Shown one piece after another: positions 1-24,679 of a stretch of DNA of 64,000 nucleotides; the stretch's first letter is position 1, and every line of letters starts with the position of its first letter. The stretch covers positions 191,041 to 255,040 of the forward strand of contig JBAQFJ010000001.1 in NCBI GenBank assembly GCA_049287205.1. The letters run 5' to 3'. Source of the DNA: Microgenomates group bacterium. GTDB taxonomy: Bacteria; Patescibacteriota; Microgenomatia; UBA10105; UBA927. A program made the translations under genes and the position numbers. The notes beneath the pieces were generated by a model. It worked only from the letters and a program-made list of their open reading frames with translations, ran no database searches and was not told the DNA's origin.

Positions 1-1
1 C

Positions 2-247
2 GAGCAATGTCCGGAATGCGGCAATACACTGGTCATACGAACCGGGAAATTCGGCAAATTCATTGCCTGCAGCAATTTTCCGACGTGCAAGTATACCAGA
101 CAGAAACTCGAAACGATTGATATGAAATGTCCGAAATGCGGGGGAGATATTGTAGTGAAAAAAACACGGTATGGAAAAACATTCTATGGGTGCAGCAATT
201 ATCCAACATGTACATTTGCTGCGTGGAAAAAAGAAGATATTAAATAG
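2..247 (+). CDS. topA: DNA topoisomerase I, C-terminal zinc-ribbon fragment (5' partial)
   Basis: The frame-2 translation [32 protein letters not shown]...[39 protein letters not shown] contains two CxxC...GCSN(F/Y)PxC zinc-ribbon repeats typical of the TopA C-terminus. The stop codon is at 245-247. Confidence 0.7.
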
Positions 248-252
248 GAAGT
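217..252. repeat. Left copy of a 36-37 bp imperfect direct repeat (tgctgcgtggaaaaaagaagatattaaataggaagt). It spans the topA stop codon.
   Basis: Seen directly. About 34 of 36 positions are identical to 1371-1406. Both copies keep the frame ...AAWKK(E/G)DIK*. Confidence 0.8.
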
Positions 253-316
253 AGCTTCGTTGTTAATCTTTAAGAAAATATTGATAATACCAGATAAATC
301 TGTTACAACAGAATAA

Positions 317-340
317 GCTTAATAGCTTTTTTTACTTGAG
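317..340 (+). terminator. Weak intrinsic terminator downstream of topA
   Basis: Stem aagct, loop taat, stem agctt, followed by ttttttt. The stem is short and AT-rich. Confidence 0.35.
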
Positions 341-343
341 TTT

Positions 344-1357
344 TTGAACGTATGTATGAGAGTATATATTGACGCAAATATTTATCTTCAATTATTTGGT
401 CCTGCAGGAGACAAAGCCGATTATATTGGAAAAATAATAAAATTAATAAAAGCAGGTGATGTTGTTGTGATATTTCCTAAAATTACTCAAAATGAGGTGT
501 TTCGGAATATAGGCAGTATTTATGATCAAAAATTACAAAAAACAAAGGTGAAAAAATCTGAATTACAGGATGTTGATGAAGATGACAATGATGATATACG
601 AAGAATAAAAAATAAACATATTCAAATATGTCAAGAAAGTGTGACTAAAGACCTTGCAATTTTTAGAGAAGAATACCAAAAAACTAAACAGTCGGTTTTT
701 AACAGTATTTTTAAGGATTTAAGATTTCAAACAGATGATTTTCCTGAAACTGATGAATTAGTGAGTAAAGCAAATTTTAGACACATAAAAGGGTATCCGC
801 CAGGAAAAGGACCACATATTGGCGATGAGTTGGCTTGGGAAATTCTTTTAACAAATTGTTTAGATGACGATTTGACGATTATAGCAACTGATCCAGATTG
901 GCGTGATAAGACTTCAGAAAAATTGATTCTAAATATGTTTTTGAGAGAGGAATGGGAACAAAAAACAAAGAAAAAAATAATTTTACAAAATTCATTAGGT
1001 GAATTTATTTCTCAATATCCAAAAGTCGGTAAAATAAAAAAAGAAGATATTGAAGCAGAAGAAAGAATGAATACAATACCATTTTATAGAGAGACTATGT
1101 TGTATGGCTTGACTGGAACAACTGGACCAACTGGACCAACTGGAATAGCTGGAACAGAGATGATGACAGGTGCCACGGGTCCAACAGGTTTTTATCAGAT
1201 TGGTACGATTAAGGGAGATACTGGTATCAGCGGAACATCAGTTAATCTTGGTACTTTACGACCAGTACGTTGTTTAAATTGTAATAGATCTTACTATGAT
1301 ATGCCTTCAGGTGGAGTATGTCCCGAATGTGGATTGCCAACATTAGTGTTTTTTTGA
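344..1357 (+). CDS. Hypothetical protein with an N-terminal PIN-like nuclease domain, a collagen-like GxT repeat region and a C-terminal CxxC...CxxC zinc ribbon
   Basis: The N-terminus VYIDANIYL...QNEV...IIATDPDW shows PIN-like acidic residue spacing (assigned by eye). The repeat region reads GLTGTTGPTGPTGIAGTEMMTGATGPTG. The C-terminus reads CLNCN...CPECG. The gene is markedly AT-rich and has no clear SD (Shine-Dalgarno ribosome-binding site). An alternative start is at 356. Confidence 0.55.
   Translation: MNVCMRVYIDANIYLQLFGPAGDKADYIGKIIKLIKAGDVVVIFPKITQNEVFRNIGSIYDQKLQKTKVKKSELQDVDEDDNDDIRRIKNKHIQICQESVTKDLAIFREEYQKTKQSVFNSIFKDLRFQTDDFPETDELVSKANFRHIKGYPPGKGPHIGDELAWEILLTNCLDDDLTIIATDPDWRDKTSEKLILNMFLREEWEQKTKKKIILQNSLGEFISQYPKVGKIKKEDIEAEERMNTIPFYRETMLYGLTGTTGPTGPTGIAGTEMMTGATGPTGFYQIGTIKGDTGISGTSVNLGTLRPVRCLNCNRSYYDMPSGGVCPECGLPTLVFF
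1112..1156 (+). repeat. In-frame tandem 9-bp repeat (ACTGGAMMA, five units) encoding the GxT collagen-like segment
   Basis: Seen directly: actggaaca actggacca actggacca actggaata gctggaaca. Confidence 0.75.
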
Positions 1358-1370
1358 AATTTTAGTTGAT

Positions 1371-1406
1371 TGCTGCGTGGAAAAAGGGAGATATTAAATA
1401 GGAAGT
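1371..1406. repeat. Right copy of the direct repeat (tgctgcgtggaaaaagggagatattaaataggaagt)
   Basis: Seen directly. It reads as a vestigial topA 3' end (IAAWKKGDIK*). Confidence 0.8.
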
Positions 1407-1447
1407 CACTTTGACAACGCTTGTGCACCTCGTAGTATGATAAGGAT

Positions 1448-1688: not shown

Positions 1689-2300
1689 ATGCAAACGATA
1701 GGTATTATTGATACAGCTGTTTTTTATGCGATCAATCAGCTTCCACACGGATGGTTGTCAGACGGATTTTTTGGCATGCTTTCCGGTCTTGGAGACAGCG
1801 GGTTTATCTGGTTGATGATCGGTATTTGGCTTATTTTTCGTGAAGAAAAACGGGATAAACGTTTTTTTCTCCCTCTTGGAATTGCAGGAGGTATGAGTTG
1901 GTTTTTATCGGAAATACTTATTAAATCCATTGTTGCCCGCCTGAGGCCATCCAATGCGCTTGATCATGTTATCTCAGTTGGATTTCCCAACGGGTATTCA
2001 TTTCCATCATCCCATGCAACGCTTGCGTTTGCGTTCGCTGTCGTACTTTCTTATAAAGAGCCAAAGTTGAAAAAATTCTTTTTCATTTTAGCGATCCTTA
2101 TAGGGTTTTCCCGTATCTATTTGGGGTACCACTATCCAGGTGACGTGCTTGCAGGAATCGCCTTGGGTCTTTTGATCGGGTATCTCACCACTCTTTGGTA
2201 TAGACAGAGCAAGAAAAAGAAGCAAAAGGGATTGAAGAAAAGTACACGGTCAAAAAAATATCAAAAAATGCCTCCACAAAAACACCGTCATCGCAGATAG
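1689..2300 (+). CDS. PAP2-family phosphatase, likely an undecaprenyl-diphosphate phosphatase
   Basis: PAP2 motifs KSIVARLRP, PSSH and SRIYLGYHYPGDV are present. The protein has multiple TM segments. Confidence 0.85.
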   Translation: MQTIGIIDTAVFYAINQLPHGWLSDGFFGMLSGLGDSGFIWLMIGIWLIFREEKRDKRFFLPLGIAGGMSWFLSEILIKSIVARLRPSNALDHVISVGFPNGYSFPSSHATLAFAFAVVLSYKEPKLKKFFFILAILIGFSRIYLGYHYPGDVLAGIALGLLIGYLTTLWYRQSKKKKQKGLKKSTRSKKYQKMPPQKHRHRR

Positions 2301-2327
2301 ATGGGCGTTCATTGTATAATACAACAG

Positions 2328-2870
2328 ATGAAAATGAATGCGAGTCAGCTTCGAACGCAACCAGTTGATATGGAGGTTGCAACATCAATTACAAAAAATC
2401 CCATTACCATTATTTTAGATAATGTACTCGATACGTATAATATTGGATCCATTTTCAGGCTTGCCGATGCAGTAGCAGTAGAAAAAGTGTATCTTTGTGG
2501 TGCAACAGAAATGCCGCCAAACACGAGGATCAAAAAAGCATCCATCAATACGTGTGAATGGGTGGATTGGGTATATACAAAGACAACCCTTGAGGGGCTT
2601 GCTGATTTTCGGAAAAATCATCCTGACGGGCAAATTATCGCTGTTGAGCAAGACAAAAAGAGTGTTCCGTTTCAAGATGTGGTGTATACAACGCCAATTG
2701 CAATTATCGTTGGTAATGAGACATACGGTGTAAGCCGCGAAGTATTGGAGAACGTCGATACGATTGTAGAACTGCCGATGTTTGGCATTAACACGTCACT
2801 GAATGTCATGGTAACGACGGGGATAGTGCTGTACGACATTATTAGAAATACACACAACAAACCCTCGTAA
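2328..2870 (+). CDS. SpoU/TrmH-family RNA 2'-O-methyltransferase
   Basis: Motifs ILDNVLDTYNIGSIFRLADA, IVGNETYGVS and ELPMFGINTSLNV are present. The start is uncertain (2328, 2334 or 2370). Confidence 0.8.
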   Translation: MKMNASQLRTQPVDMEVATSITKNPITIILDNVLDTYNIGSIFRLADAVAVEKVYLCGATEMPPNTRIKKASINTCEWVDWVYTKTTLEGLADFRKNHPDGQIIAVEQDKKSVPFQDVVYTTPIAIIVGNETYGVSREVLENVDTIVELPMFGINTSLNVMVTTGIVLYDIIRNTHNKPS

Positions 2871-2931
2871 TAAATACACCAAAAGAAAGCTTACCGTTTT
2901 GTATCTCCCTTCCATCAATTACTGCATCGCG

Positions 2932-4335
2932 TTACCGGTATTTCCGGTTTGCGTATAGGTAGGGTATATAGGTGCGGAGTGATCTTTTTTCTGACAGGCC
3001 GTTTAGTACTGTATAGATCAAATAGAACCAGAGCCGAAATAGTATATTTGATTTCCACCCGACAAGTTTTTTAATTATTGGCATGAGTTTTGGAAACTTA
3101 ACAGCGGTTTGAAAAAAGAAAAGCATATTCTGTACATAATTGGCGTTGAGTTTTTTGAGTATTGTTCTATCAAGAATAGTTTCGGGTAAATTGGTGAAAT
3201 CATAGTCTGCGTCTAGATATCCGTGTTTTTTTGCGATATCCACTATCTTGGTTCCTGGGAATGGGGTAAAAATTGCAGCTCTTGGATAATCTGTTTTCAT
3301 GCGTATATTCATTTCAACTGTTTCCCACATTTCATTTTCGGTTTCTGTTGGAAGTCCAAGCATGTTGAATGTTTTAAATTTAATGTTGTGTGCATGAAGG
3401 GATTCTGCCATCGTTACGAGATAGTCGTTTGTATAGTTGCGCTCCACAACTTGTTTTCGCACACGGGGTGAACCTGATTCGACTCCAATGGAGACGCTGC
3501 AACAGTTATATTTCGCTAAAATAGCAATACAGGCGGGTGTTGTGAGTTCTGGACGAAGTAGCATGACAAAAGGCAATGTAGTGATTTTCGTATATTCGTT
3601 GAATACGTCATTCATCCATGGAAGATCGATCCCAAAGGAATCTGATGCAAAAATGATTGGATTGGGGGGAAAATATTGGAGTGCTGCCTGTATTTCTTGT
3701 ATTGAGCGTTTGACGCTGAAATGTCTAATGTATGGGCCTAATCCATGATACAGCTCGCGTGTTTGTTCATTAAAGCAGTAATTGCAAGAAAATGGACAAC
3801 CCCGGATCAGAAATACTGTTGGTGATCCATAGAGGACTGCCGTATTTTTGTAGCAGGACCAGTCAATAAGTGGAATGGTATCGAGCGGATAAACCAATGG
3901 ACGAAGTGGATTTTTAAACACTTTTTTCTTGCGTTTCACCCAAAGGTTTTTAATATGGGTAATTGGTTTTTTTTGATCGATTGCATTTAAAAGGTCTACG
4001 AGCGCAAATTCACCTTCGCCCCTGCAGATGTAATCAATTGGTTTTTCATGAATCACTTCTGGAAATAATGTGGGATGCGGACCGCCTAAAATAATTGGTG
4101 TTTTTGTTATTTTTTTTATGCTCCGGCAAATGTCGAGTGTGTCATTCATGAAGCTGCTAAGGCAGGAAAAACCGATCAGATCAGGTTTTTCATGAGAAAG
4201 TTTTTCTAGAATACGTTTTTTATCAGTGCTTACGATAAGCAAAAACTGGTGGCCAGCTGTTTTGGTGGCTGCGTGTAAATAGGCAGTACCGCAATACGGC
4301 GCTGTTTGAAGTTGAATCATGACTATTTTTGCCAT
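2932..4335 (-). CDS. B12-binding-domain radical SAM protein (class B rSAM, probable methyltransferase)
   Basis: An N-terminal B12-binding-like region is followed by a CxxxCxxC cluster RGCPFSCNYC. Length is 467 aa. Confidence 0.85.
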   Translation of the reverse strand: MAKIVMIQLQTAPYCGTAYLHAATKTAGHQFLLIVSTDKKRILEKLSHEKPDLIGFSCLSSFMNDTLDICRSIKKITKTPIILGGPHPTLFPEVIHEKPIDYICRGEGEFALVDLLNAIDQKKPITHIKNLWVKRKKKVFKNPLRPLVYPLDTIPLIDWSCYKNTAVLYGSPTVFLIRGCPFSCNYCFNEQTRELYHGLGPYIRHFSVKRSIQEIQAALQYFPPNPIIFASDSFGIDLPWMNDVFNEYTKITTLPFVMLLRPELTTPACIAILAKYNCCSVSIGVESGSPRVRKQVVERNYTNDYLVTMAESLHAHNIKFKTFNMLGLPTETENEMWETVEMNIRMKTDYPRAAIFTPFPGTKIVDIAKKHGYLDADYDFTNLPETILDRTILKKLNANYVQNMLFFFQTAVKFPKLMPIIKKLVGWKSNILFRLWFYLIYTVLNGLSEKRSLRTYIPYLYANRKYR

Positions 4336-4419
4336 TCCTATTACAATACACTAAGTACCAAATTATATGCAATTTTGCTCTATGCGTTGCGTTTACATAC
4401 ACTGGAAGTTTTTATTCGT

Positions 4420-5418
4420 ATGATTAGACCATTAGCACGCTTTAGAAAATCTATCTTTATCGTGTTCGTGTTACTAGAAGTAATGTGTATTTTTTTTCTC
4501 GTTCGTTATATTATCATCAAACAAAAGGGACTATTTCAAATTCATCCGTTGGCGAGCTTTGCACCTACGTCAAAGAGTAGTACACCGTTACAATATTATT
4601 ATGAGTTGACTCCCAACACCCAAGCATACGACCACGCTTCATGGCTTACTCAGGATGTTGTATATCACTATAACGCTGATGGTCTTCATGAGCGATTTGA
4701 TTATCCGGTGCAGAAAGACGCCCACGTGTATCGCATCATTACATTGGGAGATTCATTTACTTTTGGTATGTGGGTGAATACAGAAGCGAATTTTTCTGAG
4801 CTACTGGAAGATGCATTGAATACTACAGCTTCTTGTCCAGGGATTGATAGGTTTGAAGTGATTAATCTTGGCGTTCCCGGATATGATTTGCATTATGCGT
4901 TCCAACGGTTTGAGGATAAGGGGAGTAAATATGCGCCTGATGCCGTTATTTGGTTTTTACGAGGGGAGAATTTTATTCTTCATACGGAACTATACCGTGA
5001 TTTAGAAGAAACGTATAAAAAAACTCTAAAAGAAAAAACTGTAGAAACCTCTGATCAATCAGATATGTATGCTGCTTCCACATTGGCGTATCAAGCATAC
5101 ATGGATGCATATGCTACCTATTCTGCTGAAAAACAGGAGCAGATTAAGCAAGAAGAATTAAAGAACATCACAGCGTTATCTAAACGGTATAGTATTCCAA
5201 TAGTGCTTGTAACGCTTGAAGAAGAGTCGGAAGAAAATAAAAAAAGTATGCAGCAACTAGCATTACGCGGAAAAAATATTTGGTATGATGCAGTTGTTGG
5301 AGCTGATACATTTCATCCAAACGATTACCATTTAAACGCCCCAGGACACACACGTATCGCGCAAACCGTTTTTACGTTTTTACTATCTCATTTTCTGCAA
5401 TCATGTCGAATGCAATAA
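4420..5418 (+). CDS. Membrane-anchored SGNH/GDSL hydrolase, paralog 1
   Basis: N-terminal TM helix; GDS block ITLGDSFTFG; C-terminal DxxH (NDYHLNAPGH). The internal ATG at 4420 is chosen over the 4306 start. Confidence 0.75.
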   Translation: MIRPLARFRKSIFIVFVLLEVMCIFFLVRYIIIKQKGLFQIHPLASFAPTSKSSTPLQYYYELTPNTQAYDHASWLTQDVVYHYNADGLHERFDYPVQKDAHVYRIITLGDSFTFGMWVNTEANFSELLEDALNTTASCPGIDRFEVINLGVPGYDLHYAFQRFEDKGSKYAPDAVIWFLRGENFILHTELYRDLEETYKKTLKEKTVETSDQSDMYAASTLAYQAYMDAYATYSAEKQEQIKQEELKNITALSKRYSIPIVLVTLEEESEENKKSMQQLALRGKNIWYDAVVGADTFHPNDYHLNAPGHTRIAQTVFTFLLSHFLQSCRMQ

Positions 5419-6420
5419 ATGGCACATATGCAAAAAGCTCGAGGAAAAATATTTATCGTATGCATTTTTGCAGAATGCCTCAGTATCGCCATACTTTGTG
5501 TCTATATTATTGCCTTACATAAAACGCAGGCGATGCGAGCATTCCATGTCCTTCCTTTGTCTCAGAATACTGTCCAGTTTCCGATAGATACGGCGCTTCG
5601 CTATTACTATGAATTAGCACCAAATACTACGAAAATAGATGATTTTGCTTACATGCGGCTGACCGGCAAAGCGGTTCATACTATTAACGCGGATGGATTA
5701 AACGAAAGAATGATGTATGCGCTATCAAAACCTATTACCACATATAGAATTGTGACAGTTGGCGACTCTTTCACTGAAGGCGCGTTTGTTGATACAAAAA
5801 ATAATTATTCGGAAGTTTTGGAGGATATGCTCAATAGTAGCGTACAGTGCCCTTCTTATCAGCATTTTGAAGTTATTAACTTGGGTGTTGCCGGATATGA
5901 TATGCAATATAATCTTGAACGATTTAAGCAAAAAGGACTGAAGTATGATCCAAATCTTGTTATTCTTTGGACAGACGAAAATGATTATGTTGCCAATAAC
6001 GAAAAATATTACGCCTTGGTTGATACGTGGGATCCAGTGAAAGAATCGCCTGAAATTATTGCTTTATATCAATCTCAAGGTGACTTTGCGCCAGAGTCAA
6101 ATGCTGTCTGGTATAAATTTAATTCGTTATATACAAGGACAACACTTGTTGCGGAAGAACTGACGTATCTTCGTAATTTTATGCAGTTTGTTCAGAGTCC
6201 ATTGATCATTTTTTCATTGAGCCGGACGCCGAAAGACATTCGGCAATCAATCCAAACGATGGCGTATCAACAACAGGGAGCATTCTATTTTCCTGAGATA
6301 CCAGATGTGTATGATAAATTTCCTGATGACCACCCCTCTGTTGTAGGACATACGCAGTTTGCGGAATTTTTATATAGAAAGCTTCAGTCTTCTGTTCTTA
6401 CCGATTGTGTTTTTCGGTGA
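5419..6420 (+). CDS. Membrane-anchored SGNH/GDSL hydrolase, paralog 2 (tandem duplicate)
   Basis: IVTVGDSFTEG and DDHPSVVGH are present. It shares the YYYEL(A/T)PNT...NADGL(H/N)ER region with paralog 1. Confidence 0.75.
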   Translation: MAHMQKARGKIFIVCIFAECLSIAILCVYIIALHKTQAMRAFHVLPLSQNTVQFPIDTALRYYYELAPNTTKIDDFAYMRLTGKAVHTINADGLNERMMYALSKPITTYRIVTVGDSFTEGAFVDTKNNYSEVLEDMLNSSVQCPSYQHFEVINLGVAGYDMQYNLERFKQKGLKYDPNLVILWTDENDYVANNEKYYALVDTWDPVKESPEIIALYQSQGDFAPESNAVWYKFNSLYTRTTLVAEELTYLRNFMQFVQSPLIIFSLSRTPKDIRQSIQTMAYQQQGAFYFPEIPDVYDKFPDDHPSVVGHTQFAEFLYRKLQSSVLTDCVFR

Positions 6421-8098: not shown

Positions 8099-9274
8099 TT
8101 ATCTGTTTTGTAATAATTCAAATATTTTTGGATAGAGTATTTCGGCAGCCGATTGATTTCCTAAGGTATTGAGATGCGTATCTTGAGGTTGATAGTATTG
8201 TGTTGCTAATTCGTCTTTTTTCCAAATTTCAAGTAAATTAATATATTGAATATTTTTTTGATGAAAATAATCCATTAATAATCGTTGTGGTAAATCTACT
8301 TCAAATGAATCTACAGATCTATGTAATCGTGAGGCAACTTTCGTAAGTAACTCACTATTTACTTGCATTTCCTCTGGAATGATTAAAACTAAAAATTGTG
8401 CATTTGCCTGTTCAGTCAATTCTTTCATATGAGTAATATATTGTTGAACACGTGGTAATGAGAGGTATATTGAGCTATTTGGTAGAAAAATTGATGCTTT
8501 GTGAGTTTCAATCTCCAAAAAATTTTCCAATGAAAATGTTGGCTCATTGGGATTATAAGATGAATAACTATCAATCCCCAACGATCCATACGAAGAGGAT
8601 GAACTGGTTTGATTTGCCATCATAGAGGTTCTACCAAAACGTATGGTGTAATATAAATTTCGTGTTAACGATACAATTTTTGATTGATAGAACATGAAAG
8701 GAAGAAGGTGGGGTTGTTTATTTTTTTCATCTGCATAGCGTTCTATATTTGTATGTGTGTCTAAAAAATCATTTCCGACATAAAACGCAAGAAGAACAAT
8801 GTCTGGTTGATAACGTATTCCTTCTAAAGAAAGAATAATCGTTTCAGTCGGCGGCCCAATGCAAGGCAACGCAAGATTAATGGCTTGAAATTTATTTGAA
8901 TAATTTGATTGAACATTTTTTTCTAAAAGGTTGATAAATAATTGATTATATGGAATGGGTCCAACTGATTGAGAGTCTCCAAGTAATACTAAGCGTTTGG
9001 TATCTAATGGTTTAGCGTATGGGGTTTCAGGTGTTCTGAATCCCTTAGAATTAAGAACAAATCCATATAATTCATATCCTGGCGGAGTAGGGCAATCAGA
9101 CAAAGTCCATAATCCTTGCCAATCAATGTTGGTTACGTACCGATTTTGCTGATACGGATTGGTGGTAAAAAATAATAATTTAGGTGATATTTTTTCAGCT
9201 TCACGAAGAAAAAGTTCCGATAGAACAAAAACAAAAAAAATTCCGATTATGCTATATAACAATTGTTTTACCAT
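8099..9274 (-). CDS. Membrane-anchored SGNH/GDSL hydrolase, paralog 3
   Basis: VLLGDSQSVG and DTHLNTLGN (DxxH) are present. There is an N-terminal TM helix. Confidence 0.75.
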   Translation of the reverse strand: MVKQLLYSIIGIFFVFVLSELFLREAEKISPKLLFFTTNPYQQNRYVTNIDWQGLWTLSDCPTPPGYELYGFVLNSKGFRTPETPYAKPLDTKRLVLLGDSQSVGPIPYNQLFINLLEKNVQSNYSNKFQAINLALPCIGPPTETIILSLEGIRYQPDIVLLAFYVGNDFLDTHTNIERYADEKNKQPHLLPFMFYQSKIVSLTRNLYYTIRFGRTSMMANQTSSSSSYGSLGIDSYSSYNPNEPTFSLENFLEIETHKASIFLPNSSIYLSLPRVQQYITHMKELTEQANAQFLVLIIPEEMQVNSELLTKVASRLHRSVDSFEVDLPQRLLMDYFHQKNIQYINLLEIWKKDELATQYYQPQDTHLNTLGNQSAAEILYPKIFELLQNR

Positions 9275-13566: not shown

Positions 13567-15056
<1,490 letters not shown>

Positions 15057-15248
15057 AATTTAAAATCGAAGATGCGAAGCATACACGAATGAGTAATCAT
15101 TCCACTATATGATGAGCATCGATAGATTTTTACACGCATCTCTTTGAGAGAGTGCGTATATATAAACTATTCTCGAGCAGAATAGTTCTCTCAAAATACC
15201 CATGTTCCTGTCACCGTTTAGTACATCAAGTATTTACTGTTTTTCGTT

Positions 15249-15275
15249 ATCCCGCTTTGCACGCGGGATTTTTTG
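15249..15275 (+). terminator. Intrinsic terminator after the 16S trailer
   Basis: Stem atcccgc, loop tttgcac, stem gcgggat, then tttttt. Confidence 0.7.
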
Positions 15276-15300
15276 TAGACACTTTGTCTATAATAGGAAT

Positions 15301-16338
15301 ATGTTTCGTAAAACAAATTTTTTATCCTGTTTTATTATCATAGGGATTTTGATTTTCTTTATTGTCGTATCTGAATGCATCGTCCGTTTTTTATCTGACA
15401 GACATATAGTGTCGTATTACAAGCCTATTGAACTGGTTAAGCAGCATGAAACAGCGGAGGAATTGCGGTTGAGTAATGTATTTTCAAATGGTGAATCTGA
15501 ATTTGAATATGATCCTTTGTTTTTTTGGCGTCCCAAAAAAAATGTAGGTGTGTTTAATACTTTAGGGATACGAGCTGATTCATCTGGTCTGCAAGAGTCA
15601 GTTAACACATCATGTACGGTCGTCATGTACGGCGATTCAAATACTGTGGGTGCGTTTCAGGGTGGGTACTATGATTCTCCTTGGCCTGAAGAATTGGGGA
15701 AATTACTTCAGAAACACATTCCTGATGTCAGAATATTTAATATGGGGGTCTCAGGTTATTCTTCCTATCAGGGATTGGAAAAATTTCGTCAGGATATTCC
15801 TTTCTTTCATCCGTCACTTGTTTTTGTTGCATTTGGTTGGAATGATGCCGCTCCTAATATGGGAATTTCAGATAAAGAGTTTCATACCATGCTTTCTTCC
15901 TTAGTATCACCGTTAAATAATTTTCGATTGTTTCAAGTAATTAAATACTATTCTGATGCCTTGCTTCAACGATATATCCAGAAAACTGTATCAGACGGAC
16001 CAAGAGTTTCATCTGAAGATTTTAAAAATAATTTAGTTGCGTTTATTCAACTTGCACAACAAAATAATAGTACGATTGTCTTCATAACTCGACCCCACAC
16101 AGATTTTTCAGATTCAGAATATTCCAATTGGCGAGTACGCGTTGTGGAAAATAACGCCATTATTCGTTCTGTTGCCTATGAATACGGCGTCCCGATTATT
16201 GACATGGAAGAAATGTTTCTCAACCAATACAAAAATGAGTTAATCGATGATTGCCATTTTACCCAAAGAGGTCATACGATTGCAGCTCATGAAATATATA
16301 CATTGCTTCAACGTGAACAGTTATCGTGTGGATACTAG
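15301..16338 (+). CDS. Membrane-anchored SGNH/GDSL hydrolase, paralog 4
   Basis: MYGDSNTVG, GWNDA and DDCHFTQRGH (DxxH) are present. There is an N-terminal TM helix. The start is at the internal ATG 15301. Confidence 0.75.
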   Translation: MFRKTNFLSCFIIIGILIFFIVVSECIVRFLSDRHIVSYYKPIELVKQHETAEELRLSNVFSNGESEFEYDPLFFWRPKKNVGVFNTLGIRADSSGLQESVNTSCTVVMYGDSNTVGAFQGGYYDSPWPEELGKLLQKHIPDVRIFNMGVSGYSSYQGLEKFRQDIPFFHPSLVFVAFGWNDAAPNMGISDKEFHTMLSSLVSPLNNFRLFQVIKYYSDALLQRYIQKTVSDGPRVSSEDFKNNLVAFIQLAQQNNSTIVFITRPHTDFSDSEYSNWRVRVVENNAIIRSVAYEYGVPIIDMEEMFLNQYKNELIDDCHFTQRGHTIAAHEIYTLLQREQLSCGY

Positions 16339-24328: not shown

Positions 24329-24679
24329 ATACGTATCTCCTTTTAAAAAATGAAGTGCTTGTTTTGTACTATTTGTGAAGCAACTCTCATGGATTGCTCT
24401 TTGTGCTTTTGTTGCCAAAAGATTTAAAACAATCGTTTTGGAAGAGAGTATTCCAAAGGGTTTCCGCTGATACTCTATAGAAGTATTCTATAGGTCCGAA
24501 TTTCGGCTATGCCGAACCCTTTTCCTCGTTATCCCACATAGTGGGACCATGCGCTCTTTTGTTTTTTTTGCTTCTCTTTGCTCCTTTCTTTGTCTATCAT
24601 ATGGTGTCTGTCTTGGACTGTCAAACTATTTGACAAATTGTAAAAAACAAGGAATAGTAGATAGTAAGGAGAAATTATT

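Follow-up and report, generated by a model that had tools for sequence, protein, structure and literature searches.

A PIN_12 and zinc-ribbon gene inserted at the 3' end of topA in a Microgenomates bacterium

We analyzed a 64-kb stretch of DNA from a Microgenomates group bacterium (contig JBAQFJ010000001.1), hereafter called the window, near the left end of which an initial annotation had flagged an uninterrupted open reading frame (ORF). Window positions 258-1369, which contain this ORF, are a horizontally acquired single-gene insertion (∼1.15 kb) at the 3' end of topA. The encoded protein carries a PIN_12 domain, a low-complexity linker, and a predicted C-terminal zinc ribbon. Our preferred reading, which we hold with slightly better than even confidence, is that this horizontally inserted accessory gene encodes a stand-alone PIN_12 nuclease of the defence or abortive-infection type, in which the zinc ribbon serves as a variable module for targeting or sensing.

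The insertion at the 3' end of topA

On either side of the PIN gene lies one copy of a 42-nt direct repeat (216-257 and 1370-1411); the two are 38/42 identical and 1154 nt apart. The repeat pattern occurs exactly twice in the 64 kb, with 0.00 occurrences expected by chance, and it comprises the last 29 coding nucleotides of topA with the stop codon and the next 10 nt. The reading frame of topA runs to its end in the left copy (..AAWKKEDIK-stop), and the right copy is a displaced pseudo-end (..KKGDIK-stop). The insert's GC content is 31.7%, compared to 40.7% for the rest of the window, and only 2.3% of equal-sized windows were as low, in agreement with the original description of the region as AT rich. 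Two further stretches of the window, at 8-9 kb and 17-19 kb, equal the insert in AT-richness (30-32% GC).

In the related locus L013 (CAZSTG010000002.1), topA is followed directly by a 71-aa membrane-protein gene and then by PAP2, with no PIN gene, so that L013 represents the empty site. The end of topA in the window is 97.5% identical to that of L013 over 81 aa, up to the end of a 682-aa Toprim/Topoisom_bac ORF, and PAP2 is 78% identical. Since the repeat copies differ by only 9.5%, versus a 40% divergence of third codon positions between the window and L013, the duplication is younger than the split from L013. Two bases common to both repeat copies differ from L013 and from L033, another related locus, which fits a duplication in situ.

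Within the same species-level population, the junction is polymorphic, with an occupied allele in L109 and a different upstream gene in L110 (ENA ERZ27247358 k141_851020). The membrane-protein gene of L110 is 97.2% identical to that of the window. Upstream of it, at L110 1-308 (compared with window 1370-1447), we found no topA, PIN gene, or repeat but instead the end of a Thr-rich ORF (...TTTTGSRTVNVNAGGGISQQ, then stop), followed by an intergenic stretch that is homologous to that of L013. The region 3' of topA has the look of a hotspot with alternative cargo.

No transposase or integrase was present among the ORFs of the insert, and the repeat search revealed no transposon-like terminal inverted repeats at its ends. 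The initial annotation had proposed that the gene is insertion cargo, and the flanking repeats, the empty site in L013, and the low GC content agree on this point. The gene is not a conserved core gene of the lineage. The features of the locus are as follows (window coordinates, strand, description, and basis).

1..247, +, 3' end of topA (C-terminal zinc-ribbon repeats), the insertion target gene; TAG stop codon at 245-247
216..257, +, left copy of the 42-nt direct repeat, forming the functional topA end (repeat search)
258..1369, +, unique inserted DNA, 1112 nt (missing from the L013 locus; composition)
260..288, +, promoter-like site TTGTTA-17-GATAAT inside the insert, 5' of the PIN gene (consensus scan only)
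356..1357, +, coding sequence of the PIN_12-linker-zinc-ribbon protein, 333 aa (ORF list; NCBI protein)
356..1060, +, PIN_12 domain, aa 1-235, with a long helical insert at aa 79-125 (PF16289, AlphaFold2, Foldseek)
1073..1258, +, disordered low-complexity linker, aa 240-301 (predicted local distance difference test [pLDDT], Tandem Repeats Finder [TRF], homolog comparison)
1259..1354, +, four-Cys zinc ribbon, aa 302-333 (conservation, model, Pfam matches of relatives)
1370..1411, +, right repeat copy, which is a displaced pseudo-3'-end of topA (KKGDIK-stop) (repeat search)
1411-1438, +, host promoter-like site TTGACA-16-TAGTAT (consensus scan only)
1448-1663, +, 71-aa membrane-protein gene (directly 3' of topA in the empty-site relative L013)

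Both promoter-like sites are consensus matches, which are no evidence of function.

This arrangement matches a type of insertion known for restriction-modification (R-M) genes, in which long target duplication gives rise to repeats of ∼45-420 bp (Nobusato 2000; Furuta, Abe and Kobayashi 2010, PMC2853133). In the R-M cases, the repeat is present once in the empty-site genome, no other mobile element is found, and there is one low-GC insert; the 46-bp repeats of H. influenzae overlap gene 3' ends (PMC2853133). Furuta 2010 selected direct repeats of >30 bp that align once with the empty-site genome and enclose an insert of <20 kb with homologs of R and M genes and no other mobile-element genes. 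Our locus shows this footprint (42 bp, 38/42 identical; empty site in L013; 1.1-kb one-gene insert), and it shares with the R-M cases an insert that encodes a nuclease and no transposase or integrase, a repeat overlapping a gene 3' end, and an insert GC content below that of the genome. In contrast to the R-M pair found there, the insert encodes the PIN-zinc-ribbon protein only, a PIN nuclease without a methylase.

PIN_12 domain, linker, and zinc ribbon

In the ORF list of the window, the uninterrupted frame at 344..1357 (+) encodes 337 aa. Its probable start is the ATG at position 356, which gives a 333-aa product, position 344 being an in-frame upstream TTG. NCBI also annotates the product from ATG 356, and its entry [quoted passage not shown] corresponds to the 333-aa product with 100% identity and coverage.

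Pfam PIN_12 (PF16289) matched aa 7-186 of the 337-aa ORF (45.4 bits versus a cut-off of 32; E = 1.5e-11) as well as 50 of 51 aligned homologs. Within the PIN-like superfamily, PF16289, formerly DUF4935, has been placed in the VapC structural group (Matelska et al. 2017, PMC5499597). Across the 51-homolog alignment, residues D6 (in the motif YIDAN), E47 (QNEV), D157 (HIGDE), and D179 (ATDPDW) are invariant, and D181, also in ATDPDW, is conserved in at least 90% of the sequences. The four invariant acidic residues are the candidates for catalysis. Since D6, E47, and D179 are invariant, YIDAN, QNEV, and ATDPDW had been correctly singled out as carrying the conserved acidic residues of a PIN domain.

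The AlphaFold2 model, built on the 51 homologs, had a mean pLDDT of 83 and a predicted template modeling score of 0.73. The PIN fold, an alpha/beta/alpha sandwich with a parallel sheet, is present in the AlphaFold2 models, in which residues 1-240 are confidently modeled as a PIN domain that contains a long helical insert (helix 79-125); pLDDT is mostly >90 in this domain and 78-90 around aa 51-90. In a Foldseek search of the PDB, VapC, FitB, and archaeal PIN proteins came first, VapC and FitB with probabilities of 0.99-1.0, and the top matches 3zvk (VapC2), 2h1c (FitB), 1w8i, and 1y82 had probabilities of 0.82-1.0 and a TM-score (target) of ∼0.55. Thus, the profile and structure searches that the initial annotation had recommended both recovered a PIN fold, and Pfam, AlphaFold2, and Foldseek agree on a PIN-like nuclease. 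The N-terminal PIN region had been estimated at ∼190 aa; its identity holds, but with the helical insert it extends over ∼235 aa. The protein looks like an active VapC-type PIN_12 metallonuclease.

DUF4935 proteins have been described as being of unknown function, usually monocistronic, and endowed with an uncharacterised alpha/beta C-terminal region (PMC5499597). The window protein is similar to them in the match of aa 1-235, the four acidic residues, the long helical insert after strand 2, and the monocistronic habit but differs in having a disordered linker and a four-Cys ribbon instead of the alpha/beta C terminus.

The linker contains Gly-X-Y triplets in an interrupted 6+3+3 arrangement (aa 251-268, 272-280, and 287-295; nt 1106-1240), 7 of the 12 triplets being G-x-T. 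Part of this GxT run is encoded by a 9-nt tandem repeat, ACTGGAACA, present five times at nt 1112-1156 (TRF). Residues 244-294 had a pLDDT of <50 and are thus predicted to be disordered. A Gly-X-Y run of at least four triplets occurs in only 3 of the 153 best relatives; the other relatives contain Ser/Thr/Pro-rich linkers of similar length in its place. Because it is short, arises from a 9-nt repeat, is predicted to be disordered, and is found in so few relatives, the GxT run is a low-complexity linker, generated by slippage of the 9-nt unit in this lineage, and not the collagen-like domain proposed at first. A collagen-like structural or surface protein, in which the GxT run would form the triple helix of a fibre or an adhesin, could be suspected from weak matches that aa 251-297 gave with Pfam Collagen (PF01391; E = 0.003), models of collagen-like adhesins, and PHROGs of phage tail fibres. 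However, the Collagen score of 17.7 bits falls below the cut-off of 27.2, the run is lacking in 150 of the 153 relatives, and no signal peptide or trimerisation domain was seen by inspection, and we consider this idea effectively refuted. A collagen or tail-fibre identity was rejected on account of the sub-threshold score, the disorder, the non-conservation, and the tandem-repeat origin.

Downstream of the linker, residues 301-330 form a small beta-hairpin module in the AlphaFold2 model (pLDDT, ∼80). Its four cysteines (C306-x2-C309-x12-C322-x2-C325) are invariant in the 51 homologs, and several family members match Pfam Zn_Ribbon_1, Zn_ribbon_3, or DZR. The four-Cys module is therefore a predicted zinc ribbon that would bind metal; the C-terminal ribbon of the initial annotation stands, but the spacing between its two CxxC pairs is x12 rather than x15. 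With the window protein as the query, NCBIfam and PHROGs returned only weak, sub-threshold collagen-like and zinc-ribbon noise, and a sequence-profile search of the PDB returned only insignificant zinc-ribbon matches.

A word-indexed search yielded 10 relatives of the window protein, and a scan of 1.84 billion cluster representatives with a hidden Markov model gave 2787 hits at E <= 0.001, including 447 at E <= 1e-30. A CxxC...CxxC pattern was present in the last 60 aa of 128 of the 153 best cluster representatives among the 2787 hits. The combination of a PIN_12 domain, an S/T/P-rich linker, and a zinc ribbon, which had seemed unfamiliar, is thus widespread but undescribed. The sampled 90%-identity clusters of homologs contained one or two sequences each.

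Proposed defence role and alternative functions

The gene arrived as a single-gene insertion at the topA 3' end, with a 42-bp long target duplication and no transposase or integrase. If the protein serves in defence, the PIN domain would be the effector and would cleave nucleic acid, the most likely substrate being RNA, as it is for other PINs of the VapC group, and the tethered zinc ribbon would replace the PDC-S34-like C-terminal domain of other PIN_12 proteins. We infer nuclease activity, substrate, zinc-ribbon role, and defence function alike.

The initial annotation had suggested a toxin or defence effector, a reasonable guess for which there is now a precedent in the literature, the PIN_12 defence gene Cosus. 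Cosus (Brc24) is a single-gene PIN_12 anti-phage cassette of mobile integrons; it is reported to abolish T7 plaques, mutants of the PIN site are reported to lose >10^5-fold protection, and the gene is described as costly (bioRxiv 10.1101/2024.07.02.601719). Both Cosus and the window gene are stand-alone PIN_12 genes on a small mobile single-gene unit, in our case a 1.15-kb insertion. They differ in that Cosus is an attC integron cassette in Proteobacteria, whereas the window gene has no attC site and resides in Microgenomates, and a zinc ribbon is not mentioned in the paper on Cosus.

A second link to defence came from tblastn searches, which detected PIN_12 genes in 22 P1-like Enterobacteriaceae plasmids (plus one Paraburkholderia plasmid) and in one phage. 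In the IncY P1-like plasmids L107 and L108, the two that were examined, the PIN_12 gene (4001-4951 in each) lies between lxc and mat, and in phage P1 (L111, 3544-9700) the same lxc-mat slot is occupied by the res-mod/EcoPI type III R-M system. In these plasmids, a defence system is thus allelically replaced by a PIN_12 gene. In addition, the C-terminal domain of the P1-plasmid PIN_12 proteins and of the PIN_12 proteins at loci L062 and L049 matches PADLOC PDC-S34 and PD-T7-3.

Homologs of the window gene were found in unrelated neighbourhoods, as listed here by locus.

L006 (GCA_009885205.1), gene for a GIY-YIG protein of 102 aa at 4675-4983, ending 18 nt before the PIN-zinc-ribbon gene
L009, homolog 3' of an N6/N4 methylase and a Ymh-like gene
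L007, homolog among DUF2283 pairs and a DDE transposase
L012, homolog in a prophage-like stretch
L003, homolog beside mreC/PBP/topA

The sporadic distribution and the differing neighbourhoods (R-M methylase/Ymh, DUF2283, GIY-YIG, prophage-like) mark the gene as accessory.

Several observations weigh against a defence function. Beyond the shared PIN_12 domain, direct relatedness to Cosus is conjectural. The P1-plasmid PIN_12 proteins are only 25% identical to the window protein, in the PIN domain only (aa 1-232), and the PADLOC defence models matched the window protein in 0 families. Most homolog neighbourhoods consist of housekeeping genes and not of defence islands, and the links to defence all appear to stem from PIN_12 proteins outside the zinc-ribbon subfamily. 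Furthermore, passive cargo does not explain the recurrence at the ends of topA and ychF that is described below.

The best structural matches being the VapC and FitB toxins, we considered a solitary VapC-like toxin that is maintained by addiction, has no role in phage defence, and is neutralized by a small RNA, a host factor, or its own zinc-ribbon tail. The mobile, AT-rich, single-gene setting would suit such a toxin, and among the homologs, one adjoins DUF2283 pairs and another, at L040, adjoins ORFs that by eye resemble toxin/helix-turn-helix pairs. However, the + strand of the insert has no antitoxin-sized ORF, the PIN domain spans ∼235 aa with its long helical insert versus 130-150 aa for VapCs, and DUF4935/PIN_12 genes are reported to be usually monocistronic (PMC5499597). 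We regard a solitary toxin as improbable. A type II VapBC toxin-antitoxin pair was rejected, as the + strand of the insert contains no other ORF of at least 40 aa.

The order of modules, a PIN domain, a flexible linker, and a CxxC...CxxC ribbon, is also that of Nob1. Nob1 (COG1439) is the endonuclease that matures the 3' end of 18S/16S rRNA in archaea and eukaryotes and is a universal housekeeping gene. The window protein might accordingly be a housekeeping RNA-processing enzyme, a bacterial Nob1 analogue acting on rRNA or tRNA. The ribbon shows weak similarities to PRK12496 (E = 0.008), which we take to be a Nob1-like PIN and zinc-ribbon family, to Nob1 itself (2lcq; E = 0.56), and to bL32 and uS14, and one family member matches Zn_ribbon_NOB1. 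However, all Nob1-type matches are insignificant or far below the cut-offs (for NCBIfam PRK12496, 15.9 bits versus 268, in the ribbon only), and the PIN domain belongs to another subfamily. Unlike the universal Nob1, the window gene is sporadic: it is an AT-rich insertion that is missing at the L013 locus and polymorphic within the species, its neighbourhood is not conserved, and the sampled loci suggest that it is present in only a minority of the genomes of the lineage. A Nob1-like role is, in our view, very unlikely. Both a solitary toxin and a Nob1-like enzyme are less likely than the stand-alone defence nuclease.

Recurrent insertion sites and the spread of PIN_12 genes

In L033, the sister of the window protein (53-55% identity) is encoded immediately 3' of the stop codon of topA, and what is probably the membrane-protein ortholog comes next; no repeat survives. 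Other homologs are associated with ychF. In L034, a perfect 19-nt repeat with copies 1151 nt apart begins at the ychF ATG; the old promoter region has stayed with the upstream copy, and ychF receives a new Shine-Dalgarno site from the element. In L001, the sister of L034, the homolog is followed by a 7-codon ychF-like start (MSLSIGI), and in L036, which belongs to another clade, it is followed by a 24-codon decayed ychF-like 5' end. L036 also contains a weak 13-nt repeat with a distance of 1153 nt, which was reached in 5 of 500 shuffles. In L039, ychF lies 1.6 kb downstream of the homolog. The spacing of the repeat copies is thus 1154 nt in the window (216/1370), 1151 nt in L034 (244/1395), and 1153 nt in L036 (517/1670), for PIN genes of 1002, 990, and 930 nt, respectively; this near-equal spacing may reflect coincidence or a size constraint.

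Long repeats also flank two PIN_12 genes that lack a zinc ribbon. In L062, a 98-nt repeat (30-127 and 1453-1550; 85% identical) corresponds to the 3' end of the upstream gene. Its copies differ in 13 codons, of which 8 are synonymous, with the stop codon replaced by another stop and one Arg codon changed from CGT to AGG. Since the differences are mostly synonymous, both copies evolved as coding sequence, and they resemble functional alleles that have diverged, not a duplicate that has decayed. In L049, a repeat of ∼90 nt (135-222 and 1517-1603) covers the upstream region and the first codons of the downstream gene. Overall, exact flanking repeats of at least 17 nt were found for 4 of ∼70 PIN_12 genes versus 2 of 190 other ORFs that served as controls at these loci, an enrichment that is real but modest. 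At another locus, L077, a 368-aa ORF (1947-3053) located ∼1 kb 5' of a further PIN_12 gene has a perfect 32-nt direct repeat (TAACAGAGTATATCTGGTTAGGGCTACGCCCT) on its two sides and may have been inserted in like manner.

That insertion could be self-driven is suggested by the young repeats and by the recurrence of the topA and ychF sites. The PIN-zinc-ribbon protein would then be a site-specific endonuclease, which by cutting at the ends of conserved housekeeping genes (topA 3', ychF 5') would bring about the insertion of its own ∼1.15-kb gene and leave a long target duplication behind. Such an activity would suit a one-gene element with no other mobility function, the occupancy of the same topA site by the sister homolog of L033, the ychF repeat of L034, and the ychF-like remnants of L001 and L036 together with the nearby ychF of L039. 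It would also suit the combination of young repeats with old proteins at the same site, the similar spacing of the repeat copies in three cases, the ∼90- to 98-nt repeats at gene ends next to two other PIN_12 genes, and the excess of flanking repeats over control ORFs.

On the other hand, PIN domains are not a known class of homing endonuclease or recombinase, the PINs of the VapC group being RNases, and our literature search for PIN-domain homing endonucleases found no paper. Flanking repeats are lacking at most homolog loci, namely, ∼60 others besides L033, L001, L003, and L035, and at these four close homolog loci none was found beyond chance. The enrichment over controls is modest, and the variable repeat length (19, 42, ∼90, and 98 nt) argues against a fixed staggered cut. 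We saw no identical element at two different sites, contigs that share a protein also sharing its context. Neither circular nor empty-junction forms were found, with terminal overlap, as expected of circular mini-contigs, in 0 of 19 short contigs. Finally, a shared site in sister lineages could also result from vertical descent or from the transfer of an occupied allele by homologous recombination. We rate self-mobilization, the main rival of the defence reading, as unlikely, although somewhat less so than a solitary toxin.

The modular plan of the window protein recalls that of free-standing modular homing endonucleases. In these enzymes (I-TevI, Seg/Mob), a small nucleic-acid-binding module is joined to a nuclease domain through a long flexible linker. 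A target duplication is not a normal result of homing. Like the selfish I-TevI and Seg/Mob genes, the window gene and its homologs are single-gene insertions next to conserved genes and occupy the same site sporadically; the difference resides in the catalytic domain, which is PIN in the window protein and GIY-YIG or HNH in theirs. Indeed, Pfam, NCBIfam, and PHROGs assigned PIN_12 as the only catalytic domain and detected no LAGLIDADG, GIY-YIG, HNH, His-Cys box, PD-(D/E)XK, or EDxHD domain. That PIN_12 and zinc-ribbon genes form a minimal class of selfish elements of ∼1.15 kb, whose ribbon recognises the ends of housekeeping genes (topA 3', ychF 5'), is a speculative proposal to which we give little credence.

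Elsewhere in the window, a complete 16S rRNA gene is located at 13568-15054. No 23S rRNA gene is present in the 64 kb, so the rRNA genes are unlinked. Genes for tRNA-Cys (19800) and tRNA-Ile (21859) lie 5-7 kb 3' of the 16S rRNA gene, and a glmS ribozyme match at 24381-24566 on the minus strand scored 55.2 bits, above the Rfam gathering threshold. Four paralogs of 330-390 aa, at 4306-5418, 5419-6420, 8099-9274 (-), and 15202-16338, have an N-terminal membrane anchor and a common GDS-type motif that by eye resembles those of GDSL/SGNH hydrolases. Large membrane glycosyltransferase-like and radical-SAM-like ORFs are scattered among them.

The locus documents a clean natural insertion event in a candidate-phylum bacterium, as it offers both the occupied and the empty site along with a population that is polymorphic. 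Bacteria of this kind have small genomes, and few defence systems have been recognised in them. Through its footprint, the phenomenon of long target duplication, described for R-M systems, comes to include the insertion of a PIN nuclease. The PIN_12/DUF4935 family, a large one with 2787 cluster representatives at E <= 0.001, has hardly been studied, Cosus being the sole functional datum, and our locus defines a common, undescribed subfamily in which a tethered zinc ribbon takes the place of the usual C-terminal domain. The recurrence at topA and ychF hints that such nucleases may aid their own spread. If PIN_12 and zinc-ribbon genes were selfish, a PIN-fold nuclease would be a previously unknown mobility enzyme, and this would offer a mechanism by which other defence nucleases are inserted with long target duplications, so far unexplained.

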